Source: an uncultured Clostridia bacterium
GTDB taxonomy: Bacteria; Bacillota; Clostridia; TANB77; CAG-508
Direction: 5' to 3'
Length of the DNA stretch: 64,000 nucleotides
Assembly (NCBI GenBank): GCA_949745595.1
Contig: CATJWN010000049.1
Coordinates: forward strand, 4,991 to 68,990
In this document: piece by piece, positions 13,934 to 47,634 of the stretch
Position numbering within the stretch: the first letter of the stretch is position 1
Layout of the letters: each line of letters opens with the position of its first letter
Translations under genes and position numbers: made by a program
The notes under the pieces: generated by a model
Seen by the model: the letters and a program-made list of their open reading frames with translations, nothing else
Databases searched by the model: none
Told to the model about the DNA's origin: nothing

Positions 13934-14039
13934 AAATAAAATCCTCCCTGAAAAATAATTCATTAGTTATATGATAGCATTTTTGATTTTTTTTTCAATA
14001 GGCGATTTTTGGGCTTTTTAGCAATCATTACCAAATCCT

Positions 14040-18237: not shown

Positions 18238-18263
18238 AAAAAAAATAGACGACTTTTCGTCTA
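18238..18263 (-). terminator. rho-independent terminator overlapping the spoIIE stop codon
   Basis: Stem TAGACGA / TCGTCTA, 4-nt loop, then an 8-nt U-tract on the minus strand. Confidence 0.65.
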
Positions 18264-20691: not shown

Positions 20692-20729
20692 GAGTAAAAG
20701 AAAAACTTCTAGAAAATTTCTAGAAGTTT
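20692..20729 (-). terminator. rho-independent terminator after B2 (end of the A2-B2 operon)
   Basis: About 12-bp palindrome AAACTTCTAGAA...TTCTAGAAGTTT followed by TTTTTCTTTT on the minus strand. Confidence 0.75.
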
Positions 20730-20744
20730 CTCTTTTATTTTAGT

Positions 20745-23700
20745 TTATTTTAAAACTGTTTTTTTGATTACTATGATACCTATTACTAATATTCCTAATG
20801 CAACTACTACCACTATTAGCATTTGCATTGTAATTGCAGTATTTGTGTTTAAACCTGTTGGAGGTGTAAATGTAATTAACTCTGTTGCACTAGCATCTCT
20901 TTCTTCAAGTGATGCTGGGAATTCTCCAAGTTTTGGATCTGCGTTACCAGCAATAGTTTCAATATCCCTTCTACCAACTGTATTTTCAAACTTAACGATT
21001 TCGGCGATATTGTCATAAGCTAAATCGTCATCTGCGATTTGACTATCAATTGATCTTGTCATTGTCATAGCCATTGCAGTTTGACAGCCTGTATCTAGTT
21101 CTCCGTTTTGTGTAGATGCTGCAAAAGGTACTAATTTAATTATGAAGTCTGGGTTAGATAGCTCTGGACCTTCTACGTTATCAACACTTAAGATTAAGTT
21201 ATTTCTTTGGCTTGTAGTATAAGCAACACCATAGTCATCAATAATGTTCTTATTGCCTGCTTCGTCAACTTGAATTAACTCGCTTGCAATAACTCTCTTT
21301 TCATCTAATTCGTCTGCTGTTACTGTTCTCCAGCTTGAATTTTGTGCTTTATTATCTGAAGACTTAAATACTACGTCATTATCAACATAATCTATTAATT
21401 GTCTTACCATTGTTGTTGCAACTATATCGTTTTGTGTGTAAGCTTCGTCTTTACCTATATAATAGATACTTCCGATATGCTCACCGATATTTGGATGGTA
21501 AACATTCTTTAATTTTCCATCTTCTTTTGTATAAATTTGTCTATCAATTTCTTCTGCTTTTGCAAGTATTTCTTCCACAGTAGCATTCTCTAAGAAGCTT
21601 GATGCTCTATCTACTTCACCAACATTTAATGCTGTAAATCTATATACAACTTCTAAGTTTAGAGATTGAGCTATTGTATCATCATAGTAAATGTATCTAA
21701 AGTTTTGTAAGCCTTCTTCTTCGTTTTTATTTTGTGCAAGTAAGTTTTCTGTTCCAAAAGACTTATCCCTGTTTAGTGTAACATTTGCTGTGTACTTGCT
21801 TGTTCCAGTATCTCTATCTAAATCATAGTCATAATTAATATCATAAACTGCTTTTAAGATAGTAGAATCTGTATTTGTCTTAACTGTGATTGCTTCAATT
21901 TCTTTATCAAGTACAATTTCTGTGTTTGAACGTTCTTCAATACCACAGTCAATTGCGTCTACATTGTATGCATAATTGATTAAGCTTACAGTACCTTTGT
22001 TACCGTTAATATCTGTTTTACCGTAAACATAATTTGAATTTAAGCCTTCTTGAGTTTCCTCACCACCAGCTATAACTTCTGTTTGTTCACCAGTATTTGC
22101 ATTTGTTATAACGATTCTTTGTCCTGAAAGACTATGCATATTTTCAATGTTGAAGTTAATTTTTGCTGTGTCTGCAAACATACTTGTGTTTTTGTATAAC
22201 TCTGTATGATCTGCATTGTAGTCATTAGCTGTTGCTAATGCTGTTGTTATTGTATTATCTAATACTTTTGAATATGCGATAACTCTTAATCTTCTTGCCT
22301 CATTATCTATTGCATCTGAGTTATGGCTAACTACCTCACCTGCATCATTATAGTCACAAGTATCGAAGTCATACCATTCATCATTTATAAATCCGCCTTC
22401 GGCATATTCATGTTCAACATCTGCTTGATATTCTGTTGTCTTGAAGTCTTGACCATTATATACTGCTGGTTTTCTTGAATTGTCATCAGATGTTTGTGGT
22501 TCTGCCACACCATCTAATTTAACTAGGTTACCCTCATCATCTAAGCTATCTGATGGGAAATCACCATAAGTAAATCTTACTACATAATTTCCAGCTGGAA
22601 TATTCTTAAATTCGTATTCACCTAATTTTTCTGCTGTATTACCTGTTAAAGTAATACTATCAAATCCTGTTACGCTCTCTAATGAGCTTCCATTTAAGAA
22701 GTCAAAGCTTTGTGATGTTGGCCATACGAAATCGTATTCTCTGTATGTACCATCAGCTTGTTTTACTCTAACTTTTTCTACCATTTGAGTAGTTAAGTTA
22801 CCTATCTTTCTCTCGCCTTCGTCATACATACCATTACCAATCTTTTGATTGTAATCGATTTCTTCTGTTTCCTTATCTTCCCAAGCCATACCATTTAAGT
22901 TTCTTGTCTCTGTGTACAAGTCTAAAGTTATGATTGGTGCTGAATCAGCATCGTCTTCATACCATGATTTTTCATTCTTGCTTTCGATATCAACATTATT
23001 TGGTGCTGAATCTTTATCTACTCTACCAGCTATTTTCTTAGTCTCATGATCGTATGTTGAGTATGCTGCAATCTCTGCATCATTAGCTTTTGTTCCTAAT
23101 CTTACATAAGATTTTGTAGCATCTCCCGCTCCTTCTCCAAATGATGCTGGTGTTTCGTCTGTTCTTACTTTAAATGTTAAGTATAATTCAAGTTTTTCTC
23201 CTACTGCTAATGTTAAATCGCTTCCACTTAAATCAATTTCTGCTTTATAGTAATTCTTGCTTTCTTCGCGTCTTACATTATCAGATGGTGCCATTGCTTC
23301 ATTTTCTGAAGTTTCTATAGTAGTTGAACTATTTACTAATCCACTACTTACAGTAACTTTTCCTTCAAGTGATTTATTTAGTTGTTCTGCCCAAGCACTT
23401 CCATCTGTTTGACCTTTCTTAACTACATAAGCTGGTGTAGCAACTACTGTTTCTGCGTCTACACTCATACCATTTGCTTCTTGAATATATCTTGAAACTT
23501 TAGTATCAACTAATTCTAGGTCTTCATCAAAGTAGTCTGTCAATTTCTTAACTTCTGCTAAGTATGAATCTGAATTATTGTATACATTTATCTTATATGT
23601 TAAGAATACATCTAAGTCTAGTTCATCTGAAATATTGTCTTTTCCAATAGATCTGTAGAATTCTTCAAGAGCTCCATGTACTTCGTTTCCTTCATATACT

Positions 23701-26700
23701 TTTGCTCTATAGTAGTAATCACTTTCATATAAATCTAGTTTATATGAGATATTTGCATCTGCAATCTTTAATTGTAAATTCAAATAATCTTGATATTCTT
23801 CTGATTCGAAATCTACATATTCGTTATATTTGTAGTTCATTAATTTTTGATTTACTACAACATTTGCTGAGTAAACATCTTTTGTTACTGCAAGTTCAGC
23901 TTCATCTCTTTTTACTAAACCTAAGTTAATGTTTAGTAAGTATGGATATGTTGCTGAATAATGATATTTTATTACTAATCCACCTTCGATTTTGTTTATG
24001 TATTTATCTACATAATCAATATGGAATTTACTATCAAATGGGAAGGTTAATCCTCTTGTTGATGTTCTTGCTGGCATTTTAAATGGTTCTCTAATATATC
24101 CATTTTCTAATGTTTGAAGTTCAGATATTTTTCTTGTATTTCCATCTAATGATGGCATTGAATCTGTGCCATAGTAAATTAAATCTGTTCTCTCTCCATT
24201 AGAGCCTACTGCATAACCTTCTGTTACTCCATCATCATCTATAGGTGAATCACCTGTAAATGTTGCAAATTTGTTATTGAAAGCATCTCTTTCTGCTTCA
24301 TCGTCTACTGCCATTGAATCTTTATTAAATTTATTTCTCTCAGCATTTGATTTCTTTCCTCTAAATGCTTCTGCATTGCCACCACCAGTTACTAAGAACT
24401 CTGTTGGCTCATAAGTTTGACCATCATAATAGAATTCAACATCATAGTCTGCTCTTGTAATACCTTGTGCCTTTTCTTCATCTGTTATACCAGGCACTGA
24501 CATTCTTGGAGCTGACCAGATACCCTCTACTGATGTATATATTGGATAAGATATTTCTGTATCTGAACCTTCTTCATAACCTGTTGCTAAAACTCTATTT
24601 ACTTCTGTTTGGCCAGAATATAATACTTTCCAAATTAATACTTCTACATTTTGTAATCTTTCTTCTGATTCATCTAGTAAACCATTTGGTTTTGAATCTG
24701 GTGTGTTTTTGTCTTCTTCATTTAATGGTGCATCTACCCAAACTGTACCAGACATTGCCATTGTTAAGTCATACTCTGTAGTAATTTTATATTCGTTTAC
24801 ACAAAGTACTTGACAAGTCGCATCATCTTTAAGTGTTCCACTAGCATTTGTAATTCTAGCTTGTTTCCAGCCCTCTGGTAACTCACCCTCACTTACTGAA
24901 TATGTAGGAGCATTTCCTTTCCATGTAATTGATGGTGATGTCCATGTTTCATCTGGTTTTAATGTAGTTTGTATTATCTTGTTTCCATTTACAATGCTTT
25001 CTCCATCACATTCAAATGTTCCCGAAATTCTAACTGTAAATGGGAATTCTACATTATTATCTACACCTATTTTATCGTCTGTTTCAATTTCTTTCTTAAT
25101 AGAAATTTTACCTTCTTTTTCACCTTCTGCATCGTTTGTAATTACTGCTGAAATCTTTTGGTTTGCTGAAAGTTTTCCACTTGGATTATCTATTTTTATT
25201 AGTTTCCAGCCTTCTGGAAGGTTAATTTCTTCTATTTCATAAGTTGGAGGCTCTGTTCCTTTGTCCCAAACATATTTGTCTGTCCAAGTTTGACCTGCTT
25301 TTAACTCTTTTGTATAAGTCTTATCTCCAACTCTTAATTTAACTGTAAAGGTTTGGTCACTTGAAATATTTCCATCAAGAACCTTTCTAATAGAAATTTC
25401 TGCACTATCCCAAGCCTCATCATTATATGCATCAACTCTAGCTACATTTTTATCTGATAGTTTACCAGTTTTATTTGTAATCTTGTAAAGTTTTGCACCT
25501 TCTGGAATATTAACCTCTTCTACTCTATATGATGGAGCTCTTCCTGTATAAGAAATATCTCCTGAATCCCAAGTTTCACCTGGGTGAATTGTTATTATTC
25601 CATCTGAAGAAGTATTTGGACCTACATATAATTTGTTAGCAATATATAACTTAAATTGGAATTCCCAATTACTATGTTCTGGATCTGCGTGTTTTGTAAG
25701 TTGTACTCTTCCTCTATGTTCTATTTCTTGGTTAGTTGCTGTAAATTCAAAAGTATTATTATTCTCATTTTTTTGAACATCTAATAATTTGTAATTTTCA
25801 GCAGTTTCACCTTCGAAAGCTTCTCTAATTTCAACATTAGGTTTGCTTTCGCCTTCTTTTAATTTATATGTTTGACTTCTGAATTTTACGTTTGCTCTAA
25901 CTTGAACTCTATCGAAAAATTCTCCATTGGTATATACATCAAATACGAATTTATCTGATGTAGATACTTCATTTCCTGATGGATCTACTACTTTCTTATA
26001 AATTTCGTAATTCCATTCGTCATCACCTGTATCAATCTTTTCTGCTAAATCTAAGCTTGTATATTCATACCATCTAGCACCTATTACACCATATGCTAAT
26101 AACTGTGATGGTTTTTCTTCCATTGATGTTAAATCTACCCAATAATTCCATTTAATTGGATGTCTTGAATGATATCCATGTGAACAGCTTCCATCACAAG
26201 TACTATTTATTCCATGTGAAGAATGTCCACAAGTTCCTGGACAGTATTCAGCAACTTCTTCATCTGGTGTCCAAGTTTGTTTAAAATATGTACCTTCAAG
26301 TTTTTCATATCTACCACCTGCATTCATATATTTGAAATCAAAGTGTAGATTTTCAATTCTTGTTACTCCTGGAATGTAATCTAATTCAATATAGAATACT
26401 TCATTAGAGTGTGGGAATCTGTATTTATCTGTAACTTCCCTTTGGTCTTTTAAGAAGTTAAATTTCCATTTAGCACCTTCAACTTCTTGTATTTCATTTG
26501 CTATTCCTTCTTCATCTTCTTTGATAGCAAATGGAACTTCTCCTAAGTTTGTATATAATTGTGCATTTGTAATACCAGCAAATTGAACTGGCTCTCTATC
26601 ATTTTGAGGAATATCTGCTAAGTTTCCACTGTTTGTAACTTGATTTCCATTTTCGTCTACAACTACGTTACCAAATTCATCAACTTCTGAATATTCAAAT

Positions 26701-27641
26701 TCTCCATCAAAATCTGATACTTGGAAGCTTTCTTCAACATAATCTACTGAGAAAGGTCCTATTGTCCAAGTATTTGTATCTGTATCGAAAGTTGCTGTAA
26801 CTTTATCTTCTCCTGTTGCTTTTCCATTTTCGTCTTGTTCTATTTTACCATCTTGGTTTGCATCTTCATTAAATGATGGCTCATATTCAAGTTCTGGAGC
26901 AGGTACTGTTCCTGAATGAAATTCACCGTTTTTATCTGTAAATTCATAATCTGTATCTACGAAGTCTGCTTCATTTACACTTTTTGCAATTTGTTTAATG
27001 TAGGCATAGAAAGCTTCTGCTTCATAATATAATGCATTTAATGTGCTGTGGTTTGTACCTTTGTTGTCATCTGTTACCCACCAAGCATATTGAATAGTTG
27101 TATAATTATTTGCATAATATACTTTTTCTCTAACTTCTGGATCAACTTCTGCAATCATTTCTGCTAATATGTATGAGTTGTCAGGACTTGTAATTACTAT
27201 CTCTGTAGCTTCATACCAAGCCCAGCTTTCTGCTGAATATGACTCTGAAGTAAATGGTGATGGATTCTCTGTTGAATCTGATATAGTAAGTGCTGTACTT
27301 CCTTCATCAGCTTTTACTAATTCACCAATTTTTTTACCTTGGTCAGTAGTATCTGTTGAACCTACTTCTGTATTTAGTATTGCAGAATTTCTACCGCCTA
27401 AGTGTGAATCATTACCACCATGGTAACAACATAAAATATCATATCTTTCTTTTAAGTCTTCCCATGTTAAATATTTTCCTTCAAAATTTATAGTCTCTGA
27501 TGTTCCTTCTGTTCCTCTTGATTCCATTTCTGTTGTAACCACTGTTGCATATGCAAAGGCTGCGGTGCTTAATAATGTAACAATTATTATCATTAGTGAA
27601 ACTAAGAATTTTTTGTCAAGTTCTGAAAATAATTTCTTCAT
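20745..27641 (-). CDS. giant surface protein B2 (2298 aa): signal peptide, thioester-like N-terminal motifs, Cys/His cluster, SdrD-B/CnaB-like repeats, C-terminal TPPTG + TM + basic tail
   Basis: Uninterrupted 6.9-kb ORF. The ATG at 27641 lies 1 nt after the A2 stop. Motifs: GMAWEDKETEEIDYNQ.., GEYEFKNIPAGNYVVRFTYGD, ..TFTPPTGLNTNTAITMQMLIVVVVALGILVIGIIVIKKTVLK. Paralogous to B1. Confidence 0.8.
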   Translation of the reverse strand: MKKLFSELDKKFLVSLMIIIVTLLSTAAFAYATVVTTEMESRGTEGTSETINFEGKYLTWEDLKERYDILCCYHGGNDSHLGGRNSAILNTEVGSTDTTDQGKKIGELVKADEGSTALTISDSTENPSPFTSESYSAESWAWYEATEIVITSPDNSYILAEMIAEVDPEVREKVYYANNYTTIQYAWWVTDDNKGTNHSTLNALYYEAEAFYAYIKQIAKSVNEADFVDTDYEFTDKNGEFHSGTVPAPELEYEPSFNEDANQDGKIEQDENGKATGEDKVTATFDTDTNTWTIGPFSVDYVEESFQVSDFDGEFEYSEVDEFGNVVVDENGNQVTNSGNLADIPQNDREPVQFAGITNAQLYTNLGEVPFAIKEDEEGIANEIQEVEGAKWKFNFLKDQREVTDKYRFPHSNEVFYIELDYIPGVTRIENLHFDFKYMNAGGRYEKLEGTYFKQTWTPDEEVAEYCPGTCGHSSHGINSTCDGSCSHGYHSRHPIKWNYWVDLTSMEEKPSQLLAYGVIGARWYEYTSLDLAEKIDTGDDEWNYEIYKKVVDPSGNEVSTSDKFVFDVYTNGEFFDRVQVRANVKFRSQTYKLKEGESKPNVEIREAFEGETAENYKLLDVQKNENNNTFEFTATNQEIEHRGRVQLTKHADPEHSNWEFQFKLYIANKLYVGPNTSSDGIITIHPGETWDSGDISYTGRAPSYRVEEVNIPEGAKLYKITNKTGKLSDKNVARVDAYNDEAWDSAEISIRKVLDGNISSDQTFTVKLRVGDKTYTKELKAGQTWTDKYVWDKGTEPPTYEIEEINLPEGWKLIKIDNPSGKLSANQKISAVITNDAEGEKEGKISIKKEIETDDKIGVDNNVEFPFTVRISGTFECDGESIVNGNKIIQTTLKPDETWTSPSITWKGNAPTYSVSEGELPEGWKQARITNASGTLKDDATCQVLCVNEYKITTEYDLTMAMSGTVWVDAPLNEEDKNTPDSKPNGLLDESEERLQNVEVLIWKVLYSGQTEVNRVLATGYEEGSDTEISYPIYTSVEGIWSAPRMSVPGITDEEKAQGITRADYDVEFYYDGQTYEPTEFLVTGGGNAEAFRGKKSNAERNKFNKDSMAVDDEAERDAFNNKFATFTGDSPIDDDGVTEGYAVGSNGERTDLIYYGTDSMPSLDGNTRKISELQTLENGYIREPFKMPARTSTRGLTFPFDSKFHIDYVDKYINKIEGGLVIKYHYSATYPYLLNINLGLVKRDEAELAVTKDVYSANVVVNQKLMNYKYNEYVDFESEEYQDYLNLQLKIADANISYKLDLYESDYYYRAKVYEGNEVHGALEEFYRSIGKDNISDELDLDVFLTYKINVYNNSDSYLAEVKKLTDYFDEDLELVDTKVSRYIQEANGMSVDAETVVATPAYVVKKGQTDGSAWAEQLNKSLEGKVTVSSGLVNSSTTIETSENEAMAPSDNVRREESKNYYKAEIDLSGSDLTLAVGEKLELYLTFKVRTDETPASFGEGAGDATKSYVRLGTKANDAEIAAYSTYDHETKKIAGRVDKDSAPNNVDIESKNEKSWYEDDADSAPIITLDLYTETRNLNGMAWEDKETEEIDYNQKIGNGMYDEGERKIGNLTTQMVEKVRVKQADGTYREYDFVWPTSQSFDFLNGSSLESVTGFDSITLTGNTAEKLGEYEFKNIPAGNYVVRFTYGDFPSDSLDDEGNLVKLDGVAEPQTSDDNSRKPAVYNGQDFKTTEYQADVEHEYAEGGFINDEWYDFDTCDYNDAGEVVSHNSDAIDNEARRLRVIAYSKVLDNTITTALATANDYNADHTELYKNTSMFADTAKINFNIENMHSLSGQRIVITNANTGEQTEVIAGGEETQEGLNSNYVYGKTDINGNKGTVSLINYAYNVDAIDCGIEERSNTEIVLDKEIEAITVKTNTDSTILKAVYDINYDYDLDRDTGTSKYTANVTLNRDKSFGTENLLAQNKNEEEGLQNFRYIYYDDTIAQSLNLEVVYRFTALNVGEVDRASSFLENATVEEILAKAEEIDRQIYTKEDGKLKNVYHPNIGEHIGSIYYIGKDEAYTQNDIVATTMVRQLIDYVDNDVVFKSSDNKAQNSSWRTVTADELDEKRVIASELIQVDEAGNKNIIDDYGVAYTTSQRNNLILSVDNVEGPELSNPDFIIKLVPFAASTQNGELDTGCQTAMAMTMTRSIDSQIADDDLAYDNIAEIVKFENTVGRRDIETIAGNADPKLGEFPASLEERDASATELITFTPPTGLNTNTAITMQMLIVVVVALGILVIGIIVIKKTVLK

Positions 27642-27642
27642 A

Positions 27643-32748: not shown

Positions 32749-32886
32749 AAATTCATCCTCCTAACAAACTTTTTGACATAGTATGACTCTATTATCATAT
32801 ATATAATATTTTACTACTTACAAGGTTTTAGTCAAGAGCTAAAACACTTGTGTTTCATAAGTTTAACAAACTTTTTTTTAAACTAT

Positions 32887-32948
32887 TTACGGAAGCTAAG
32901 TTCATAAAAATTGTATGTAAATATATTAAATTTTTATTACACTTTAAG
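32887..32948 (-). promoter_or_regulatory. sigma-A-type promoter plus conserved leader box upstream of the A2-B2 operon
   Basis: Read on the minus strand: CTTAAA, 17-nt spacer GTGTAATAAAAATTTAA, TATATT (32925-32920), 25 nt, TTCCGTAA (32894-32887). The -35 is weaker than in the other two copies. Confidence 0.45.
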
Positions 32949-33130
32949 CAACTTAAAATAGCTTATTTGTAAAAGCCTGCTCACTATCTATTATACCAAT
33001 TTTTGTAAAGGTTTTCAACCTTTTTCAGCACTTTTTTCAAGTTTTTTGTAATTTTTTTCTACTATTTCATAGCGTTACAAAATTTTTCTTGTCATAATAG
33101 AACATTTTTGTGTTTTTTAGACAAAAAAGT

Positions 33131-33166
33131 CGTAAAAAGGCTCACAAACTTTTACATTTGTGAGCC
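33131..33166 (-). terminator. rho-independent terminator after B1 (end of the A1-B1 operon)
   Basis: Stem GGCTCACAAA / TTTGTGAGCC (33139-33148 / 33157-33166) followed by TTTTTACGACTTTTTT on the minus strand. Confidence 0.75.
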
Positions 33167-33178
33167 TAATTTTACTCT

Positions 33179-39100: not shown

Positions 39101-41842
39101 TGTTGTTTTTGTTCCTTCATGTATGTATTCATATTCTTCGCCTTCTGTCCATTCAGTAGAACCATTTGCTATTGACAACAGTTCACAGTTTTCTGGAAGG
39201 AAGTCAATTATTTTAGCCTCTACTGATTGCATTTGGTAATTTTGAAGTCTAATTATATATGTAACTGTATCACCATATTCTACAAACACTGGATTTTCTT
39301 CTTTTAGTCTTTCATTTTCTACTGGATTTTCACTTAGCTTAGCTCTTAATTCGCTTTCTACATAAGAAGTATCTGTAGCTAGTGTTTTTCCTTCTATTTC
39401 CTCATGTGTAACATCTTTTATAAATTTGTTTATTCTTACATCTGTTGTAAGCCTTATGTCTAATTCCGTCGTTACTGGTGTTTTTATTACTACTGTGTAC
39501 GCATCACGTACTGCTAAGAATGTTTGACCTTTTGCAACATTTTTATATCTATTTATCCATTCTGTAATATACCAACATTCTGTATGTCCATGTGGACATC
39601 TAAAATATGCCCAACCATCTCTATAATGTCCTTCGCAAGAGCAATGGCAACCTGCTCTTATATGTCCACCACCACAAACTGGTCTTGGATGCTCTCCACC
39701 TGTACTTCCGCCGCAGCCACAACCTGATATTTTATGTCCTGCACATGGACAATTAAATGGTGCTTCTGGACAATAAGCAAAATACTGTGTTTCTTGCCAA
39801 TCTCCTACACTATGTGTTCCCGGATATGGACTTCCCCAGTCTCCATCAACAGAAGTGTAAGAATAAGTTTCACTACACTGAGTACCATTTTCGTCTGTGT
39901 CTCTTTGCCATCTTGTAACAACATATTTAGAACTAATTACCCATCCACGTCCATCTGATTTAGTTTGTCTGTAATTAAATTCAAATTTTGTTAGTTTTAC
40001 TGCGTTTTGAATTCTCGCACGTTTTATTATAATATAGAAAGTTGAATTTGGATATGGGAATTCATACTCATCTTCTGATGGTGTTTTTATGTATTCTGCA
40101 GATATTGCATGTCCTTTATTTTCTGTTTCTCTACCTTTCATATCTGTATATACTATTTCAACTTGATTGTCTTCTGCTTTTCCAATTTCTACTTCTTCTG
40201 GTCCTCCAGCTTCATTTTCGAAAGTAACTTTACCATCTAAGATACCACCTAGCATTTTTTGTTTTCTTGCTAAGTTTGAACCAGAAAATTGTTCTATGAC
40301 AACATGCTCTTTTGCAAATGCTAAAGCATAATCACTCATAAAGAATGGTCCTACTTTATAGTAGTATTCTCCATTTTCTTCATATATTGTTGTACCAGTA
40401 GAATCATCGATGCTACCTACTTTTTCACCTTTTACTTCTTCAGTAAAATCATCAGAGCCTGGATCAGCATTTATAGAAACTGATGGTCTGTTAAGTAAGT
40501 TTTCATCTGTTCCTTCTATTGCTGCTGCGTGTTTTGCAGCTTCATCTCCTGATATGTTAGTTGTTAATAATGCTTCATACTCATTTAAAGCAGCTCCTGC
40601 TTCCCATAATTTTGAACTCATTATTAAACCTTCATTAACTTCAGAATATTCAACATCTGCACTTACTTCTGCATCTTCAATATCCTCTATTGTTATATCA
40701 GTATCAATATCTCCTCCACCTTCGCCACGTGCAGGATCTCCTACTACACCCCATATTGCATTTTGAGCTCTCTCTTGATTATAAATATTAGAGCTTATAT
40801 TTGTATAGCCTCCTGTCATCTTTTCAGAAAAGCTGACTGCATATGGAAATATATTTGAGTGATATGTTCCAAATTTATTGTTTATTGTATATATATTTGT
40901 ATATTCTGCCCAATAATGTACATTAGAATATACATATCTATTATTTTTATCTTCTGAAACTAACGGTTTCCCACTTGGCTTTGGCTTACTACCTCCTGCA
41001 GGTGAACCACCGACTACCGCATCTGAAACGCCTACTGAAACACCTAAATCAGAAACTCCATTTGTTACGTCTTCTGTGAAATTAGTGGTTAGTCCCATTG
41101 TTAAACCAGCCATTCCACCACTGCCTGCACGATGTTTACCATCTGCACAAGTTTGATTTCTGTGGTCGCTTTCTATTACCATATCTAAGTGGTCAGAACT
41201 GTCAAAGCTTGTATCAACTCGAGGATTAACATATGACGCATATGTTCTATTATTTATAGTAACATAGTCACTAATATCTATTGACCTTGGTCCATGATCT
41301 ATTTTCAAGTATCCATGATATCTACCAATAGCTTGTCCACCTTTTAAACAGAAGAAAGATGGAAATGTTCTTAATGCTGTTAGACCTGTACTTATTCTTC
41401 CGCCAATATCATAATTTTCATCGTTTAAAAAGTCTAGTAAATTTTTTATTGTTGTGCCTCGTACACTACTACTATCACCGAATTTTATCTTTGGCGAAAT
41501 TTCTTCAGTCTTTTCTGTTATTTTTTCTCTTCCACTTGGTAAAATTTCTCTTGATACTGCCGTTGTTTTCACATCAGCAACTTCCCAAGCTGACTCACCT
41601 TCTTTTAAATAAGTTTTACCTTTGTGGTTATATTTTGCTTCTACTGTATAATTTCCAACAGTAACATTTCCTTCTTGAATTGCTTTTACTGCTACTTGAT
41701 TTTGCAGCTCTTCAGGAGTCTGGCTATCTTCTTTTGTATTAAATAATGCACCCCAGTCAAAACCACTTGCTGTCATTTTAAAACTTGTGAATAATACTAT
41801 TAGCATAAAGACTGCTAGTATTTTCGTCAATTTATTTTTCAT
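33179..41842 (-). CDS. giant surface protein B1 (2887 aa): signal peptide, thioester-like motifs, large Cys/His cluster, SdrD-B/CnaB-like repeats, Pro-rich linkers, C-terminal TPPTG ... TM anchor
   Basis: Uninterrupted 8.7-kb ORF. ATG at 41842 lies 6 nt after SD GGAGG. Motifs: AGTVWLDVDKDGYIGPNANGKLD, GEYMLSGYIPGEYIVRFTYGD, ..VTLTPPTGLDRL...TVVTIIAVILVCVVVLVIIKKYHSRRIK. Confidence 0.8.
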   Translation of the reverse strand: MKNKLTKILAVFMLIVLFTSFKMTASGFDWGALFNTKEDSQTPEELQNQVAVKAIQEGNVTVGNYTVEAKYNHKGKTYLKEGESAWEVADVKTTAVSREILPSGREKITEKTEEISPKIKFGDSSSVRGTTIKNLLDFLNDENYDIGGRISTGLTALRTFPSFFCLKGGQAIGRYHGYLKIDHGPRSIDISDYVTINNRTYASYVNPRVDTSFDSSDHLDMVIESDHRNQTCADGKHRAGSGGMAGLTMGLTTNFTEDVTNGVSDLGVSVGVSDAVVGGSPAGGSKPKPSGKPLVSEDKNNRYVYSNVHYWAEYTNIYTINNKFGTYHSNIFPYAVSFSEKMTGGYTNISSNIYNQERAQNAIWGVVGDPARGEGGGDIDTDITIEDIEDAEVSADVEYSEVNEGLIMSSKLWEAGAALNEYEALLTTNISGDEAAKHAAAIEGTDENLLNRPSVSINADPGSDDFTEEVKGEKVGSIDDSTGTTIYEENGEYYYKVGPFFMSDYALAFAKEHVVIEQFSGSNLARKQKMLGGILDGKVTFENEAGGPEEVEIGKAEDNQVEIVYTDMKGRETENKGHAISAEYIKTPSEDEYEFPYPNSTFYIIIKRARIQNAVKLTKFEFNYRQTKSDGRGWVISSKYVVTRWQRDTDENGTQCSETYSYTSVDGDWGSPYPGTHSVGDWQETQYFAYCPEAPFNCPCAGHKISGCGCGGSTGGEHPRPVCGGGHIRAGCHCSCEGHYRDGWAYFRCPHGHTECWYITEWINRYKNVAKGQTFLAVRDAYTVVIKTPVTTELDIRLTTDVRINKFIKDVTHEEIEGKTLATDTSYVESELRAKLSENPVENERLKEENPVFVEYGDTVTYIIRLQNYQMQSVEAKIIDFLPENCELLSIANGSTEWTEGEEYEYIHEGTKTTTQEGVMGEKVSYSTNKFKMEKKWLVIPGGTESAPGTVDLTVKVKVLDWVDGLDSGELISGIVQTNTVGGGEDIDDPFGPPITPTPTPSTPTGQLLKFENKTQIITNNIGYVEGDELNVDYMRTVYDSEDRPGPVVNLAELDDSKLTISSDWYAINNYNLGINKFISDYKSPVSEANEERGITKDEKIEVDDSTKSRSQMSEQDKEARPFPAEKEDILTYKIRLTNDAKDEYTEKSSYGGKKPATQVRPNNVIDEMHEGLRLATDAELGQAGISGTPVSAKIYDSSGNVKVNNVNVSYTNVSGGSGRTRYEFVIPNFSGSDYVILDPGDYLEYTVYVKVIESNMYLGKLDNEASYKILTNVNAKTLDRVIQNEDGSVNENMAPQQKTKEWVKMKDLVIAGTVWLDVDKDGYIGPNANGKLDRNLDVRQEPSTKLPDYNVEYAMKNIVVKLYKKDGTLVRTTATNDEGLYTFAQTYDESTGTLTWCDGEYTHITAAKDSDQRIDKAEPKDPTNKTYGSNAKLVDYYIEFEYDGLVYKSTEIYSNYMNINGDGTYQDIYEIDSNAYEFKDVREEFNTNYEIIAYNKGYKGDLTHPEYPDLKYEKVDHESYIRVNKDRVITARSFITGKDKTKSIENTKLLWLFKQQSTELPETEYLKFINLGLEEREDVDISITHDVYELTTTINGERMTYEYNQNKYTRKNPDSNEASGIDKAKAEGTERFDSEKFMTGYDAHQSDASETSNKEWYEFEYYLEDYNYRISQYHIQTVRDYKGSPLRTNYEAPINEGGSSVILNNLLGTDDKTNAYVTGRESELNTEIKFRIRVTNNAIDNDEPFLPGFELGASTDIPVYTGINEIVEYYSEDFVDVEVEGGVIKAFNVKTKDENDYLVNTAMKVAEAKAYLADGTEVDVTLSNTSPYNTKRTIEGYDTIFITPTNQSVSTNVLTGNNIKAGQLMLAEGESLDIIIKFVVEKEAETPEKIEMETILGEKENVAEISAYSTYYKDGDSYKSASLVDKDSNPGNYGENYGAAVTDDGYIKYYEDDTFKTGINLKIPSPSTTPDNPDNPTPDPDDPTPTTREKEYTERTLVGYVWDDARSETAENNDGTQYLGDGRWNTSVHAISEARKNQATINGRPAVANGEETDIRVQDVEAKLVEQIRIPVTSAGAIIAHELDGEAAEERIYEDTIYVNDTDSIMETRTDSNGEYMLSGYIPGEYIVRFTYGDDVSKEQCLIFNGQDYKSTSYQSGEAVLAENAQPAGEKTAGDVRLDILEKDGVSDAKDDEIRRLEVIGYSETMNNQKNEILRGANSIDKQAMIDNTSMFAETADFLVRPEKEIRKVTILTYYEYNKKIVETISQARFRVNNIDFGIEYRPELQLGLNKYISNITLTTSDQRGGGTDAPLVDAIFDEFYGVVKQTDYVTGATTFWTDAEGEIIRVDPAASTEYITSVLSRNGVNTNAVEKNNDGTYILAIAGTELNKDKSIGLTNVQYLPNEYDLDADGNPEIDEIDGKVLVRSTQGFAYIVVDDDIMQGATIKIKYLFTGTNLGEVDRVSSNLSDLRFKENEEVRKYDRTINDSSSYYEEVDYQISGQRDRLTLINQNYSAAQTARNALFSEYYRYELESDNSIRQDLTPEHNDILYKVKPKYMKVSDARVVDIRDITNAHTNTTLLTHPGSALAEEANTYYGRYLGSTYFTGVINENMDVLAELKVDKILDYIDNDLVFNNDDNRGEDKLWKTTTAAELFIDGMLNESTYSYYENGQIVNDNAQIQANRERLEKKLVDAQGRAYNTSERSNLAISLDDRVRDDYGQPGAPTEDTTTNKKFTNFLIPRYSKEKSLDSFGTISLYASKVISPEDDNDDMVYENIAEVIQYSSVTGRVTNLATTIGNAKIEELTDTRPSPKPNESPEYYEGRTESDTASVEKVTLTPPTGLDRLNRTVRKVVEGASYTVVTIIAVILVCVVVLVIIKKYHSRRIK

Positions 41843-41856
41843 AACCATCCTCCTTT

Positions 41857-44800
41857 CTACTTATAAATTTTCTTTGTGTTGATTTTTACTTTTAATTTGT
41901 TATTCTCTATTTTTATTATCATTTTTTCTGTCATTATTGCATATGAGCCTAGTGCCATAATGATAAATATAATAGTTATTGGCACAAAATTGCCACCTGT
42001 TCTAATTGAAAGAATAATTTCTTGTGTTGAGCTATTATTAGCTTTTTGCTCTACTACATTTATGCTACTTTCTGCTTCTGCAATTTCAATTAAATTACTT
42101 ATTACACCAGTATTTTCAGTATTCATATTTCTTACTAATACCAAACTTATTTCTTTTTTATCTCCTGGTGCGATATTTTCGTCTTTTAAACTTTCATTAT
42201 ATAGTTTACCATCTGTACCTAAATACCAACCCTTATTGTCTTTTTCGTTGAATTCCATATCTTTTGGTAAATGGTCTACTAATTTTAAAGCTTTACCTGA
42301 AACATTACCTGTGTTTGTAACAACTATCTTATATGTTAATGCAACTGTTGTATTTTTCATTTTCTTAGCATCAACTTCTATTTTTGCTAAGTCTGCATTA
42401 TCATAAGTTTTTGTAACTGTTTTTCCTTTTACATCAACTACTGATTTAGCAATAAATTTTTCAACTTTTAAATCAAAGATGTTTCTTTCTTGTAAACCAC
42501 AATTGATATTTTCTAAGTTTAAGTCTGTAATTGTTATTGTATTGGTTACTGCAATTCCATCTGTATAGTTCATTGCATCTGAATTTCTATCTTCTTCGAT
42601 ATCAACACCTTTATATGTTGAAGCTATATATTTTTCTCCATCATATTTGAAGTTAATTGTGTAATCTCCTGCTGTAACACCTGTAAATTGATATACACCA
42701 CTTCCATTTGTTGTAGTTGTTTTTACAACATTTCTTCCTTGATGTAGCTCTACTTCTATTGCTGATATACCCTTTTCTTCATCATCTTTTCTATTGTTTC
42801 TGTTTACATCTAGCCAAACTTGTCCAGTAATTGAATGTGTTTCTACTGGTGCTTGTGGAGCTTTATTATCATTATTTGAATTGCTGTTATTTGAACTATT
42901 ATTATTTTGATTTGCATTGTTACTTGAGTTGTCATTATTTCCATTATTACTGTTTGAGCTATTGTTGTTAGTAATAGGGTTTCTATTATTATTTGAACTA
43001 TTATTATTTTCATTTGGTCTTATTTGATTGTTGTTTGAAGAATTTGAATTATTTGTTTCTTCATTTTTATATATTGGCTTTTCTACTGGTTTATTTGGAT
43101 CTTCTTCAATGTTTATATTTATTACATTTGAAGAAACAGTCTCCATATAATTAGCTGTTGCTTCTGCTTTATTAGAAATTGTCTTTGAAGTACCATTTAA
43201 TTCTGCTGCTTTTCCAATAATAGTCATTATAACCTTTGCACCTGCTTTAAAATTTGAAATCGTATAAGTAAATGTTGTTCCACCAACATATTTACCAACT
43301 TGATTACCATCTATTTGTACTACAACATCTGTTAGATTTTCAGAAATTTGGTCTTTAATAACAAAATTTTCAGCTACATAATTTCCTTTATTTTCTATCT
43401 CTAATGTTAATTTTACTTCTGCTTTTTCTTTTAAATTATTAATGACATCTGTAGTTTGATTAATAGTAATTTCTGGTCCTATATATTGTCTTGTTAAAAC
43501 ATAACTTTTTTCTGTTTCTACTCCACTTGCTCCTACTGTAAAGAAAGTATCAATTTTTTGTGCATTTCCTGTTTTTCCTTTTGCTCCAATATAAACACTA
43601 TATGATTCTTCTGCTTTCATTTCTGCAAAAGTAACTGTAACAGTATGAGAAGATTCATCATATTTTAAGTCATATTTTGCTTCTCCTTCATATGAATGTA
43701 TTTCATTATTATCTTCTGCATATTCTACTGTGTTTGGAAGAGCTAAAGTTACTACTACATTTTTTAAATCATTATCAGAAATATTACAGAAATCGTTTTT
43801 ATATGTAAATAACTGTCCTGGTTTAATTTCTGTCTTACATTCTGTATTAACAGTCATATCAAAATTTGATTTTACTAATTCATTTTTTGTTGAGTTTGTT
43901 GTAATAGTATCTCCGAAATTTTCAGCTTTAACTGTTGCTTTATTTTCAACAAATACTGTATAGTTAGTATCTAAGTATTTCTTCTGACTATCTTGCAACT
44001 GTGAACCACTATCTATAACATCTTCTCTATAAAAATATCCTTTTTCGTCTTTTTCTACTTTAACACCTAAAGTTTTTTTATAATATGCTTCTGGAGTAGG
44101 TATTGAACCTGTTTTTACATAATATCTAAATTCTTTTCTATCTCCTGGCTCAATATTTCCACAATTTGCATTTACTTCTCTACTATCTACAGATACATAA
44201 TTATCATTTCCATAACCATTTTCCTCTGTATATGCTTGTAAAGTTGTATAGTCTGGTACTACATTTTCTATTCTAACATTTTCTGCTGTGACACTTCCTG
44301 TATTTGCAACAGTAACTGTATATTTTATATATCTAGCTTCTCCTACAACTTTTCCATCTCCAATATCAACTGATAAACTAGCTTCAAGTTTTGGTCCAGC
44401 TTCTGTTACTAAACCTACTAAGTCAGCACTTGAACTTTCATACATTACTGCAACATCTGAATGATTATTATAAAATGCTCCAAAAGATCCATAAAGTTCA
44501 ACTTCATAAGGTAGGTTAGCTGGAATTTGGAAAGTATAATAAAATTTGAATACTGTTCCTGGTTCAACTTCACCTGTTGGTACTATTAAATATGATTTCA
44601 TAGTCTCTATGCTCTCTGGTGTCTTTGTCCATTGGTTATTACTATCATTTAAATCTTTGGTAGCTATTGCGCTTGGTGAATAGTAAATATCACATCCTAT
44701 TGGATTACTATCTGCTTGTGTAATTCCTGTTATCATTTGTGAATTTCTATTTGATTTTGTTTTCTCGCCTGTTATAACATCTGTTGCTTCTGAATGAGGT

Positions 44801-47634
44801 ATTCTACCTAACATTGCAACATCTGTACATTTATTTCCTGTGTTGTTCATTGCTGCTAAATTCATTATAACTTGTCTTGGAACTTCTCCCATTGCAACTA
44901 AAGCTGTTATCTCACCTTGTTTTATACTTTCGATAGTTCCTCCAAGTCCATCATAGTTTTCCATTGAATTTGTTGTTATAAAGCCTATTGGTGCTTTATA
45001 TGAAAACACTTCAATATCAAATCCATTTGTTGTTTTTAATATTCCAGCTGGAATAGGTGATGATATTTTCCAATCTGTTTGTGATTGGTAATTTGAAACA
45101 CCTTGATTGAAGTAATACATTTTTAACTGGTCATCTTTTCTTGGTGCATAATCATCAATTTGTATTTTTGTATTAATTATAATGTTTGTTCCATTAGTTC
45201 CATCACTAGTACTAAAGTTTCTTTGTACACCTTCTAATTGAATTTTCATTCTTTGGTGGTTTGTCTCATCTCTAAAAAGTGTTATATTTTTTACTGTTAA
45301 TCCATCTTCATATAATAAATTAACTGCTCTTACTTCTACATTTTGTACGTGTTCTGGAAAAACGACTTCAAACTCTGGGTTTATATATAAATCGCTTTTC
45401 TCTGTGTTGTTATTAAGCTCTATTTTAAGCTCAACATCATCATTGTCAACTGTTGTAGACAATTCTTCTTTACTCATTGAAATTTCTGCTCTTGTATAAC
45501 TTTTTTCAAAGTATTTTTCTGTTTTTATTGGTGTAAGTGGTATAACTTCTTCTGAAGTACCATATTTTACTTCTGCTTTTATTCTACTTTCAATCTTATC
45601 AAAATTATTGAAAGCTGATTTATCATAAGTGCATTTTCCAAGTGATTTTACAAAGTCAATTGTGAAAGTTCCATTTACTACTATATTTCTGAAAGATACT
45701 TCTACTCCACGTACATCTCCATTTAATGCTATTTCGCAAGTCTCCTGTGAGTTTGCGTTATCTTTACTTAAAGTATATAGTACTTCACCTGTATTTGATC
45801 TTATTTCTATAATTCCGCCTTGATCTAATAATGTCATTAGCTCATTATATCTGAATTTAACTGTCTTATATTTTACATCTTGTGTTTCAAACTCAATTTT
45901 GTCTTTATCAATATAATATTCTTTTGTATCTTTTAAAGTAAATTCTTCTAAAACATCGTTTGTAAGTATGTTAATACCTACTGTTGATGTAAATTCTGCT
46001 TCATATACTGCATCTACTGAGTTGTAGTTTGCATTTATTAAACCTTTGCTGATTGTATCTTCTGTTGTTCCTATTGAATAGGTAATAAGCTCACCTATAT
46101 TTACAAGAGTCGTTTTATCTGCTGAGAATTCTTTAACAATTAAGTTATTTGATTTACCACTATATTCTTCAACAGTCACTTTTCCTTTTAGATTTACTGT
46201 AATTTCTTCACTTCCTACATAATCTTCATATCTTAACACAACTGTATATATATCTTCGCCTTTTGTTAAAACAGCTTCAGGGTTTGTTATTTTTATAGTT
46301 ATGGTTTTTGTACTTTCATTATAAGACCAATTGTCCTCAGTGAAAGTAACTTCATTAATCTCTTGACCTTTTGTAGCTTTTAATTTTGTAGCATGAACAT
46401 CTAATGCTATTGGTAATTTTCCATTAATTTGTGGCACTTCAATTTCTAAAGTAGTTTCTTTAATAGGTAGGTACTTATCTTCTGTACATTCTCTATTTAA
46501 AATTACTTTTCCTTCAACTAAAGTTCCTCTTGTCCCTTCAATCTCAAAAGCTGAGATTTTTGAAACATCACTTGCAAGTAAAATATCACTACTATATGTC
46601 CATTCTGTATTTACTTCATCTGTAGATTTTACTTCTACCTCTTGTAAATCCTCATTTATATATGTACCTGCTAAATCTAGTTTTATATTTTTATATAAAT
46701 CAGCTACTTTTAAAACTTCACCTGCTTTATATCCTATTTTTACATATATCGTGCTTTGATGGATAATGTTTTCTACTAAGATCTCATTGCCACTAATAAT
46801 TTTTGCACTACTTGAAGAAGGTGCCTGAACTTCTGCATCTTCTTTCTCTTTTACTTGCTCTTTATAAGCATTATCCTCATCTACTAAAGTATCGTCTGCT
46901 TCTAACGCTGGTGGTGGCGTTATTACTGATAATTCTGGTGCTTTTTCTTCTGATGGTATTTCAGGAATTGTAGTTTCAGGATTTGCAATTTCATTAGTCA
47001 CTGTATTTTCTTCTGTAACTGTGTTTCCTGCTGATACTGTATTTGTGTTTTCTGCAGTGTTAGCTTCATTGCTATTTACTGTGTTATTAGTAGCTACAGC
47101 ATTTTGATTCGTTGTATTGTCTAATATTTCGTTAGTAGCAAACTCACCACTGCTATTACTTGTAATTGTTTCTGGTAAACTACCATCTAAACTAACTGTT
47201 TGTAAATCAGCATTTACGACTTGTTCACTTTGCAATAATGGCTTATCCGCTTGTACTAATTGCTGAGTACTTTCCTCCTCTTCATCGTTTTGGGTAGAGA
47301 AATTTAAAACTTCTAAAAATTCAAAATTTGGCTCTCCTTCATCAGTAACAGCCTTGATTGTTCCTGATTTCAAATATCCTACTTCTTTCGGCTCTAGCTC
47401 TAAAACCAATGTCATATCTTGGTTTACATCAGCTTTCATTTCCTTCGTTTTCTTGCCATTTTCGTCTAAGAAATATGCTTCATAATCAAGATTATTCTTA
47501 GCAAATAACTTGAAACCAAAGAACGAAAGACCTTCGCTAGTTGCTAAAGCTTGCAAAGTAAGACCACAATTTGAAAATGTCATAACAAACACGATGGCCA
47601 TTACTAAGATTTTCTTAAGTACTTTGTTTTCCAT
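41857..47634 (-). CDS. giant surface protein A1 (1925 aa): signal peptide, DUF11-like repeats, Asn/Ser-rich linker, SdrD-B-like domain, C-terminal IRTG + TM
   Basis: Start moved to the ATG at 47634 (SD AGAAAGGGAAAG; MENKVLKKILVMAIVFVMTF..LQALA signal peptide). VANTGSVTAENVRIENVVPDYT. ITGQVWLDVNRNNRKDDEEKGISAIEVEL...GDYTINFKYD. Confidence 0.8.
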   Translation of the reverse strand: MENKVLKKILVMAIVFVMTFSNCGLTLQALATSEGLSFFGFKLFAKNNLDYEAYFLDENGKKTKEMKADVNQDMTLVLELEPKEVGYLKSGTIKAVTDEGEPNFEFLEVLNFSTQNDEEEESTQQLVQADKPLLQSEQVVNADLQTVSLDGSLPETITSNSSGEFATNEILDNTTNQNAVATNNTVNSNEANTAENTNTVSAGNTVTEENTVTNEIANPETTIPEIPSEEKAPELSVITPPPALEADDTLVDEDNAYKEQVKEKEDAEVQAPSSSSAKIISGNEILVENIIHQSTIYVKIGYKAGEVLKVADLYKNIKLDLAGTYINEDLQEVEVKSTDEVNTEWTYSSDILLASDVSKISAFEIEGTRGTLVEGKVILNRECTEDKYLPIKETTLEIEVPQINGKLPIALDVHATKLKATKGQEINEVTFTEDNWSYNESTKTITIKITNPEAVLTKGEDIYTVVLRYEDYVGSEEITVNLKGKVTVEEYSGKSNNLIVKEFSADKTTLVNIGELITYSIGTTEDTISKGLINANYNSVDAVYEAEFTSTVGINILTNDVLEEFTLKDTKEYYIDKDKIEFETQDVKYKTVKFRYNELMTLLDQGGIIEIRSNTGEVLYTLSKDNANSQETCEIALNGDVRGVEVSFRNIVVNGTFTIDFVKSLGKCTYDKSAFNNFDKIESRIKAEVKYGTSEEVIPLTPIKTEKYFEKSYTRAEISMSKEELSTTVDNDDVELKIELNNNTEKSDLYINPEFEVVFPEHVQNVEVRAVNLLYEDGLTVKNITLFRDETNHQRMKIQLEGVQRNFSTSDGTNGTNIIINTKIQIDDYAPRKDDQLKMYYFNQGVSNYQSQTDWKISSPIPAGILKTTNGFDIEVFSYKAPIGFITTNSMENYDGLGGTIESIKQGEITALVAMGEVPRQVIMNLAAMNNTGNKCTDVAMLGRIPHSEATDVITGEKTKSNRNSQMITGITQADSNPIGCDIYYSPSAIATKDLNDSNNQWTKTPESIETMKSYLIVPTGEVEPGTVFKFYYTFQIPANLPYEVELYGSFGAFYNNHSDVAVMYESSSADLVGLVTEAGPKLEASLSVDIGDGKVVGEARYIKYTVTVANTGSVTAENVRIENVVPDYTTLQAYTEENGYGNDNYVSVDSREVNANCGNIEPGDRKEFRYYVKTGSIPTPEAYYKKTLGVKVEKDEKGYFYREDVIDSGSQLQDSQKKYLDTNYTVFVENKATVKAENFGDTITTNSTKNELVKSNFDMTVNTECKTEIKPGQLFTYKNDFCNISDNDLKNVVVTLALPNTVEYAEDNNEIHSYEGEAKYDLKYDESSHTVTVTFAEMKAEESYSVYIGAKGKTGNAQKIDTFFTVGASGVETEKSYVLTRQYIGPEITINQTTDVINNLKEKAEVKLTLEIENKGNYVAENFVIKDQISENLTDVVVQIDGNQVGKYVGGTTFTYTISNFKAGAKVIMTIIGKAAELNGTSKTISNKAEATANYMETVSSNVININIEEDPNKPVEKPIYKNEETNNSNSSNNNQIRPNENNNSSNNNRNPITNNNSSNSNNGNNDNSSNNANQNNNSSNNSNSNNDNKAPQAPVETHSITGQVWLDVNRNNRKDDEEKGISAIEVELHQGRNVVKTTTTNGSGVYQFTGVTAGDYTINFKYDGEKYIASTYKGVDIEEDRNSDAMNYTDGIAVTNTITITDLNLENINCGLQERNIFDLKVEKFIAKSVVDVKGKTVTKTYDNADLAKIEVDAKKMKNTTVALTYKIVVTNTGNVSGKALKLVDHLPKDMEFNEKDNKGWYLGTDGKLYNESLKDENIAPGDKKEISLVLVRNMNTENTGVISNLIEIAEAESSINVVEQKANNSSTQEIILSIRTGGNFVPITIIFIIMALGSYAIMTEKMIIKIENNKLKVKINTKKIYK

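Follow-up and report, generated by a model that had tools for sequence, protein, structure and literature searches.

A duplicated pair of genes for giant, putatively surface-anchored proteins in an uncultured gut Clostridia bacterium

Layout of the locus

The 64-kb stretch of contig CATJWN010000049.1 analyzed here (the whole stretch is called the window below) comes from an uncultured Clostridia bacterium and carries four giant genes, all on the minus strand, which form two A→B operons: A1 with B1, and A2 with B2. Four long minus-strand open reading frames (ORFs) were recovered where an earlier reading of the sequence (the original prediction) had placed the genes, at 20745 to 27650, 27643 to 32748, 33179 to 41848, and 41857 to 47733, and the inner start codons at 27641, 41842, and 47634 agree with the gene calls of public assemblies. 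The same or near-identical gene calls (1925, 2887, 1701, and 2298 amino acids [aa]) are found in one NCBI metagenome-assembled genome (MAG) and in several ENA, Logan, and JGI assemblies, and contig CASNFD010000003.1 carries identical genes. All four genes are intact, with ~26.5 kb of coding sequence in a 27-kb block. Their products are large and acidic (186 to 323 kDa, isoelectric point [pI] 4.4 to 4.6), with few cysteines beyond one cluster. The genes and the signals around them are as follows.

41857 to 47634, minus strand: gene A1, 1925 aa, 214 kDa, pI 4.6, assigned from the ORF, Pfam, the sequence, and paralogy with A2
41843 to 41856, minus strand: A1-B1 spacer of 14 nucleotides (nt), aaaggaggatggtt, holding the GGAGG Shine-Dalgarno sequence of B1
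33179 to 41842, minus strand: gene B1, 2887 aa, 323 kDa
33138 to 33167, minus strand: intrinsic terminator downstream of B1, an 11-bp stem followed by a T-run on the coding (minus) strand
32990 to 33018, minus strand: sigma-70-type promoter of the A2-B2 operon, TTGAAA-17-TGnTATAAT, with an extended -10 element, 11/12, strong
27643 to 32748, minus strand: gene A2, 1701 aa, 186 kDa
27639 to 27645, minus strand: A2 stop/B2 start junction, TAA-T-ATG, with purine-rich aaaggtaggtg inside the last A2 codons
20745 to 27641, minus strand: gene B2, 2298 aa, 258 kDa
20695 to 20737, minus strand: intrinsic terminator downstream of B2

Both junctions are as originally described, reading ...GGT GTT TAA T ATG for A2/B2 and TAG aaaggaggatggtt ATG for A1/B1, and the proposed terminators after B1 and B2 and the promoter before A2 were located by sequence signals. 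All four proteins have an N terminus that resembles a signal peptide in its n-h-c pattern (assigned by eye) and, toward the C terminus, one hydrophobic helix with a basic tail.

A 5' leader of ~235 nt separates the A2 promoter from the A2 start codon (32749 to 32989). A riboswitch in this leader (for example, one for cyclic di-GMP, as for Clostridioides difficile adhesins) was considered and rejected, with no Rfam match at the gathering score or at E ≤ 1.

Pairing of A and B across genomes

A profile of the A-specific region was run over 185,579 species-representative genomes, yielding 93 loci, 80 of which were kept, in 67 MAGs. Every one of the 67 carriers is a MAG of an uncultured Clostridia, and the hosts span chicken, sheep, deer, rabbit, mouse, and human guts; these are uncharacterized gut bacteria known here only as MAGs. 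In essentially all 80 loci (67 MAGs) with downstream sequence, the gene directly after A is a B homolog in the same orientation. The gap between the A stop and the B start is 1 nt (TAA-T-ATG) in 32 of 71 junctions and at most 16 nt in 65 of the 71, and in related junctions a purine-rich ribosome-binding stretch falls within the last codons of A. Three very distant B homologs (P0218, P0224, and P0237; 24 to 33% identity) lie in otherwise unrelated neighborhoods, and each is directly preceded by an A-like gene of 1664 to 1773 aa with CLIPPER and SdrD_B domains. The expectation, voiced with the original prediction, that A and B homologs should be neighbors in other genomes is therefore borne out in the 67 MAGs and in three distant contexts. 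Each genome holds one to three diverged A-B modules: the window has two, many MAGs have two A loci ~15 kb apart, and one MAG has three.

In some genomes the two proteins are joined. Among the top 150 cluster representatives of the B family, eight (3865 to 5309 aa) also carry the A-specific middle region, with E values from 4e-59 to 1e-16; this region was detected with hmmsearch --max, and the default filters miss it. Across the join, the order is A ectodomain, IKTG (retained in 6/8 fusions), A helix, 8 to 14 basic residues, a B signal-peptide-like core with an AxA-type site, and B ectodomain. Two of the fusions are uninterrupted standard-code ORFs on DNA, on contigs from independent assemblies. 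As predicted from sequence, the join is a topologically sensible membrane hairpin, and the fusions show an arrangement in which an A helix and a B signal peptide would be able to function back to back. In-frame fusions are a classic type of evidence for joint action of two proteins. Given the adjacency, the stereotyped junctions, and the fusions, the proposal of an obligate A+B pair and not of isolated MSCRAMMs holds. It is almost certain that A and B function together, as a single unit of a previously undescribed kind, and their constant pairing and the natural fusions suggest that obligate two-chain units can occur among fibrillar surface proteins.

In some relatives (loci L093, 6001 to 19101, and L095, 6838 to 19188), a fused A-B gene (4116 to 4366 aa) stands directly after an AI-2E transporter gene. 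This neighborhood matches the left end of the window (437 to 6323), where a different small membrane-protein gene sits.

Architecture of the A proteins

Fibrillar-adhesin-like proteins have been defined as extracellular proteins with a stalk-forming rod, an adhesive region that is usually terminal, a known anchor, and one or few identical chains (PMC8286594). One stalk domain of fibrillar adhesins is the isopeptide-bonded CLIPPER domain, and certain DUF11 domains are without the Lys-Asn isopeptide bond (PMC12617251). DUF11/CLIPPER and SdrD_B domains exceed the Pfam cutoffs in the C-terminal halves of both A1 and A2. For DUF11/CLIPPER (PF01345), the scores are 39.0 bits in A1 and 56.7 bits in A2 against a gathering cutoff of 24.6, and for TIGR01451 they are 37 and 50.5 bits against a cutoff of 24; B1 scores under the PF01345 cutoff and B2 has no match. 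From its N terminus, A1 consists of the signal peptide, an immunoglobulin (Ig)-like rod with two Asn/Thr/Ser-rich linkers, DUF11/CLIPPER and SdrD_B domains, the motif IRTG, a transmembrane (TM) helix, and a Lys-rich tail. A2 has a signal peptide, ~8 unassigned Ig-like domains, four DUF11/CLIPPER stretches, SdrD_B, and a final CLIPPER-like domain, and it ends in VKTGE, a TM helix, and an RRK tail.

29869 to 32667, minus strand: A2 residues 28 to 960, an all-beta string of Ig-like sandwiches (AlphaFold2 [AF2] model, mean predicted local distance difference test [pLDDT] 84)
29587 to 29898, minus strand: top-scoring DUF11/CLIPPER domain of A2, residues 951 to 1054 (Pfam)
28366 to 28635, minus strand: SdrD_B domain of A2, residues 1372 to 1461 (Pfam; match to SdrD in the PDB, E = 5e-14)

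With the model of A2 residues 28 to 960 as the query, the top Foldseek match was to the Ig-like domains of PrgB (8beg; E = 7.5e-16), and further matches were to integrin alpha legs and antigen I/II C-domains. The Pfam domains and this model describe a stalk-forming rod of the fibrillar-adhesin type. A orthologs keep a constant length of ~1680 to 1800 aa and are evenly conserved from end to end, the best-conserved part being the C-terminal 50 residues (helix and tail). Judging from the model, A would be a conserved strut of ~15 Ig-like domains without a distinct head. Self-BLAST revealed no internal repeats or length-variable arrays in any of the four proteins, and Tandem Repeats Finder detected no repeats in the DNA.

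Architecture of the B proteins

B proteins are mostly dark to Pfam, NCBIfam, and the PDB. Their domain evidence is weaker than that for A, comprising SdrD_B in B1 and Pfam matches to Cna_B/SpaA in B homologs, so the adhesin-like domain content originally proposed for both chains is borne out for A (DUF11/CLIPPER, SdrD_B, and an Ig-like rod) and less firmly for B. B1 has a signal peptide, an unassigned head, a Cys/His-rich cluster, SdrD_B-like domains, the C-terminal module, TPPTG, a TM helix, and a basic tail. In B2, the signal peptide is followed by a variable head, a Cys/His knuckle, three CnaB-like domains, SdrD_B-like domains with insertions, the conserved C-terminal module, and TPPTG with a TM helix and a KK tail.

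26052 to 27530, minus strand: B2 head, residues 38 to 530 (AF2 pLDDT 74, medium confidence), predicted to combine an alpha/beta portion with very long beta hairpins
39575 to 39877, minus strand: Cys/His-rich cluster of B1, residues 656 to 756, with 14 Cys and many His
26160 to 26243, minus strand: Cys/His knuckle of B2, residues 467 to 494, with C467, C486, H488, and H494 kept in the family
24762 to 25724, minus strand: three CnaB/SpaA-like domains of B2, residues ~640 to 960, each closing with a similar Y-x-V/I-x-E...PEG(W/A)K motif
33182 to 35995, minus strand: C-terminal family-defining module of B1, aligned with the B2 family
20748 to 22964, minus strand: C-terminal family-defining module of B2, residues 1560 to 2298

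The C-terminal module (~730 aa) is conserved. When its profile was searched against 1.84 billion cluster representatives, 2662 proteins matched at E ≤ 1e-3, 1485 at ≤ 1e-10, and 611 at ≤ 1e-30. In the best 150 matches, the module lies at the C terminus or within ~270 residues of it, and complete proteins are roughly 1700 to 5300 aa long. All 10 of the 10 cluster representatives looked up are unnamed in every source. By profile similarity, the putative anchor module of B is the defining feature of a family that counts at least 611 clusters at 50% identity (E ≤ 1e-30) and has no solved structure.

At the other end of the protein, the head is the least conserved region of B and is replaced in distant homologs, in which query coverage is only 70 to 76%; B also diverges faster than A within the same genomes. 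The variable N-terminal head is likely the part that contacts a ligand. Foldseek returned no match for the B2 head model, with best E values of 0.05 in the PDB and 0.09 in BFVD, and a viral or phage origin of the head was set aside for lack of a BFVD match. No known adhesive Pfam domain was detected in A or B, even at E ≤ 10. The conserved Cys/His knuckle of B, with four Cys and several His in B2 and a larger form in B1, is predicted to cap a very long beta hairpin and probably binds metal. As a possible metal site of an anaerobe's extracellular protein, it is without a known counterpart.

Three further ideas about B were rejected. A thioester domain (TED) in the head was considered because the B2 family keeps C71 and Q184-x-A-W-W without exception; no Pfam TED was found at E ≤ 10, no profile-versus-PDB match was obtained, and Foldseek matched no TED to the AF2 model, which has low confidence around C71 and Q184 and so leaves room for a very divergent TED. 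Phase variation of B1 was dropped when the splits of B1 in loci L003 and L004 proved to be scaffolding N runs. A weak profile-versus-PDB match of the C-terminal module to the Nup98 autoproteolytic domain (E = 0.06; alignment A5, profile positions 480 to 522) was treated as noise, and self-cleavage by this module is worth a look despite that value.

C-terminal motifs and anchoring

All four proteins end in the same layout of motif, helix, and basic tail, which is that of a cell wall sorting signal.

33317 to 33331, minus strand: TPPTG of B1, 45 residues from the C terminus, followed by the TM helix at 33203 to 33289
27751 to 27765, minus strand: VKTGE of A2, 35 residues from the C terminus, with the TM helix at 27661 to 27756
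20853 to 20867, minus strand: TPPTG of B2, 35 residues from the C terminus, with the TM helix at 20766 to 20846

Among B homologs, x[P/E/D]PTG occurs in 68/70, located 31 to 52 residues from the end (TPPTG in 35 of the 70, SEPTG in 12, and SPPTG in 8), and [VI][KR]TGE occurs in 118/119 A homologs at 34 to 38 residues from the end. Pfam and NCBIfam detected no known anchor domain in the four proteins (LPXTG/Gram_pos_anchor, SLH, CWB2, LysM, or others), leaving the known anchor of the fibrillar-adhesin-like definition unaccounted for, and NCBIfam sorting-domain models gave only insignificant matches to the tails at E ≤ 10. The conservation of the TG motifs suggests a putative anchoring signal overlooked by current sorting-signal models. 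Either sortase-like cleavage at TG or retention of the helix could be the anchoring chemistry.

We searched for sortases in the window and in locus flanks of 10 kb or less. Among the other window ORFs of at least ~125 aa, Pfam identified no sortase or secretion gene (six ORFs matched no family), and a scan of the window and of 87 loci, of which 80 came from the genome search, turned up no ORF of 120 to 500 aa containing TLxTC. The original statement that the window lacks such genes stands.

These data bear on the possibility that A and B are independent wall-anchored fibrillar adhesins, cut at TG by a housekeeping sortase, linked to peptidoglycan, and merely co-regulated. Consistent with this explanation, both families keep the motif, helix, and tail at the right distance from the C terminus, and their stalk domains are typical of sortase substrates. 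C. difficile SrtB cuts (S/P)PXTG and does not cut NVQTG, and its signals place the motif 17 to 45 aa from the C terminus, followed by a TM segment and two or more basic residues (PMC4155245); the SPPTG of the eight B homologs fits this motif. However, TPPTG, VKTG, and IRTG are noncanonical and NVQTG, which is comparable, is left uncut, no LPXTG-type sorting model matches the tails, the sortase-like ORF is missing from all loci scanned, and the helix and tail are the best-conserved part of A. Moreover, co-regulation alone leaves the 1-nt junction across 67 MAGs and the in-frame fusions that keep the helix unexplained. We regard independent adhesins as unlikely.

The original prediction also spoke of a fiber; if a polymer or pilus is meant, the data do not support it. 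In known sortase-assembled pili, a class C sortase gene is part of the locus. A role of A and B as shaft and tip subunits of a sortase-polymerized pilus would suit the two-gene arrangement and the CnaB/CLIPPER-type isopeptide-domain folds common to pilins. Against it stand the negative sortase scan, the size of A and B (1701 to 2887 aa, without LPXTG), which is 5 to 10 times that of a pilin, and the separate anchor signal on each chain; fusion of shaft and tip in one ORF would be incompatible with polymerization. A pilus is thus highly improbable.

Age of the duplication and genomic context

Paralogy between the two modules, as first proposed, was confirmed by blastp. A1 and A2 share 27.5% identity over 1701 columns (E = 6e-164), and B1 and B2 share 24.5% over 1024 columns (E = 8e-31) and 27.9% over 280 columns (E = 7e-23), with similarity limited to the C-terminal ~1300 residues. 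A and B gave no blastp match to each other. The peptides quoted originally in support of paralogy are all present at the implied positions but one: B1 reads YENIAEVIQYSSVTGR, not YENIAEIVQ..., a two-residue transposition. The array B(3220)-A(1731)-B(2687)-spoIIE is already present in relatives whose A2 ortholog is ~49% identical. Identities of 25 to 27% between the modules, together with the same four-gene array in relatives only ~49% identical, indicate that the duplication is ancient and not recent. The modules called a tandem duplication are therefore paralogous, as claimed, and old. It follows from their divergence that the window encodes two different B heads. A test of co-duplication across genomes was uninformative overall, with A and B concordant in 31/55 genome pairs; they agree where the signal is strongest (window/CASYFC/CARFUA), and the history of the module probably includes lineage-specific duplications.

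In the lineage of the window, the array is flanked by mreBCD-PBP2-minC and spoIIE. This position beside cell shape genes, along with the universality of the pairs, would be explained if they were structural parts of the envelope, such as a lineage-specific coat or a wall-spanning scaffold, and not adhesins. The constant length of A orthologs, their conservation throughout, the lack of a head domain in A, and the absence of tandem DNA repeats or internal protein repeats such as make adhesins vary in length are all in keeping with such a role. However, distant modules occupy unrelated neighborhoods, so that the tie to cell shape genes is one of synteny and not of function; no SLH, CWB2, LysM, or other wall-binding domain is present, and the variable B head resembles an interaction surface under diversifying pressure. 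We consider an envelope scaffold quite unlikely.

Comparison with known systems

Like fibrillar adhesins (PMC8286594, PMC12617251), A and B have a predicted signal peptide, a long Ig-like stalk, CLIPPER and SdrD_B domains (above the cutoffs in A1 and A2), and a C-terminal anchor region, and they are acidic, very large, and oriented with the N-terminal end distal. Unlike them, A and B are two different chains, always co-encoded and sometimes fused, chain A has no head, and neither chain has identical tandem repeats, a recognized adhesive domain, LPXTG, or a modeled sorting domain. By architecture, A and B are fibrillar-adhesin-like and probably extracellular, and their genetics point to a departure from the identical chains of the definition, with two different chains per unit.

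Each A protein has one SdrD_B-type Ca-binding B domain, as in staphylococcal SdrD and UafA, and matches SdrD in the PDB (E = 5e-14 by phmmer, 4e-18 by profile); the UafA B domain was also matched. This likeness covers only ~90 of 1700 residues. Unlike Sdr proteins and other MSCRAMMs, A gives phmmer matches that end at the B-type domain and do not extend into the N2-N3 ligand-binding region, and it has no Ser-Asp repeat or LPXTG. Classic MSCRAMM identity was rejected, since no N2-N3 region, Ser-Asp repeat, or LPXTG is found in the sequences. With C. difficile SrtB substrates (PMC4155245), the proteins share a TG-ending motif, a hydrophobic stretch, and basic residues, with an exact SPPTG in 8/70 B homologs; they differ in that the motifs of the window (TPPTG, VKTG, and IRTG) lie outside the tested set and in that no sortase gene lies near the loci scanned.

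For the N-terminal 930 residues of A2, the closest structures were the stalks of PrgB and antigen I/II, and the C-domains of BspA, AspA, and SpaP matched at ~1e-8. TM-scores are only 0.15 to 0.3, at 8 to 11% identity; the likeness is one of Ig-like domain strings and not of orthology. The PrgB and antigen I/II families have an adhesin head and an Ala/Pro-rich stalk; Pfam scans of the four proteins turned up no other PrgB or antigen I/II features. In Mycoplasma, P1 and P40-P90 (P140/P110) are two large surface proteins encoded in one operon, with C-terminal helices, that form a hetero-oligomeric adhesion complex. Their domain makeup differs, no relationship in sequence or fold was looked for or seen, and they offer only an analogy for how an A+B pair could work.

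No published description of the A-B pair turned up in full-text searches of the literature on DUF11/CLIPPER, Scatovivens, and TANB77/CAG-508 surface proteins. Of note are the obligate pairing, the fusions, the large unnamed B family, and the noncanonical anchor motif.

A model for the A-B unit

We put at roughly 60% the probability that the product of each A-B operon is a surface fibril or adhesin unit built of two chains that are made in equal amounts. A and B would be different, Sec-exported, C-terminally anchored, nonrepetitive rods that form one two-chain surface structure. The B start lies 1 to 14 nt past the A stop, and its ribosome-binding site falls at the end of A or within it, so that a ribosome that has completed A could re-initiate on B, and this translational coupling would yield equimolar A and B. 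The A membrane helix and then the B signal peptide would enter the membrane in succession, leading to side-by-side insertion. The longer B chain would present the variable, probably metal-bearing head, with A serving as a strut. Both chains are presumably exposed at the surface, to judge from their sequence features, and their anatomy and conservation suggest adhesion as the function of the pair.

Several points weigh against this model. Contact between A and B is presumed, and profile alignment of the membrane-proximal modules of the two chains is weak (hhalign E = 0.0026, probability 11%). Neither chain has a recognized adhesive domain, and the B head is without a structural match in the PDB or BFVD. 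The TG motifs, at 31 to 52 residues from the C termini, resemble sortase signals, so the helices might be removed, which would change the anchoring picture. If the B signal peptide is cleaved, the fusions are polyproteins and prove co-production, not contact. Finally, a promoter scan upstream of A1 flagged none.

The two-chain unit might also be read more boldly, in a form that we find doubtful. A-B would then represent a giant, heterodimeric surface organelle of a new class, anchored in the membrane and restricted to the uncultured TANB77-type gut Clostridia, with unlike rods joined at the membrane by their membrane-proximal modules and helices in an integrin-like layout. The metal-bearing head of B would contact food particles, mucus, or partner cells, and [VI][KR]TG/xPTG would mark an undescribed processing or anchoring pathway.

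The organism and neighboring genes

The nearest named relative of these bacteria is Scatovivens, of GTDB order TANB77 and family CAG-508 (PMC13106387), and from such relatives the organism of the window is inferred to belong to TANB77. In four independent assemblies of the species, spoIIE (18261 to 20544, minus strand) is split into overlapping ORFs of 569 and 202 aa, and one of these assemblies has an additional 16-bp deletion in the gene; relatives ~49% identical keep an intact spoIIE of 804 aa. The spoIIE of the window is probably a pseudogene, and sporulation may therefore have been lost. A comM/yifB-like Mg-chelatase gene is likewise in pieces (3093 to 4931, minus strand), and DprA is only 187 aa long. 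On the related contig L093 (1900 to 4203), comM is fragmented in the same way (135+149+125 aa), so the fragmentation is not a one-off assembly error. That ~26.5 kb of A/B coding sequence stays intact while spoIIE, comM, and dprA are split or truncated was counted as evidence of selection, in support of a two-chain surface unit. Since the A-B module takes up 27 kb, is present in two copies, is intact amid broken genes, and occurs in every relative examined, it is likely a main part of the contact of these cells with their surroundings.

Elsewhere in the window, a 1512-aa protein (9425 to 13963, minus strand) combines leucine-rich repeats with a Big_2 domain and carries a type I dockerin at its C terminus; no cohesin-bearing partner was seen in the window. 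Between PBP2 and A1 (47871 to 49072), a MinC-like ORF (164 aa, only weak Pfam matches), which is not followed by minD or minE, is accompanied by two small ORFs.

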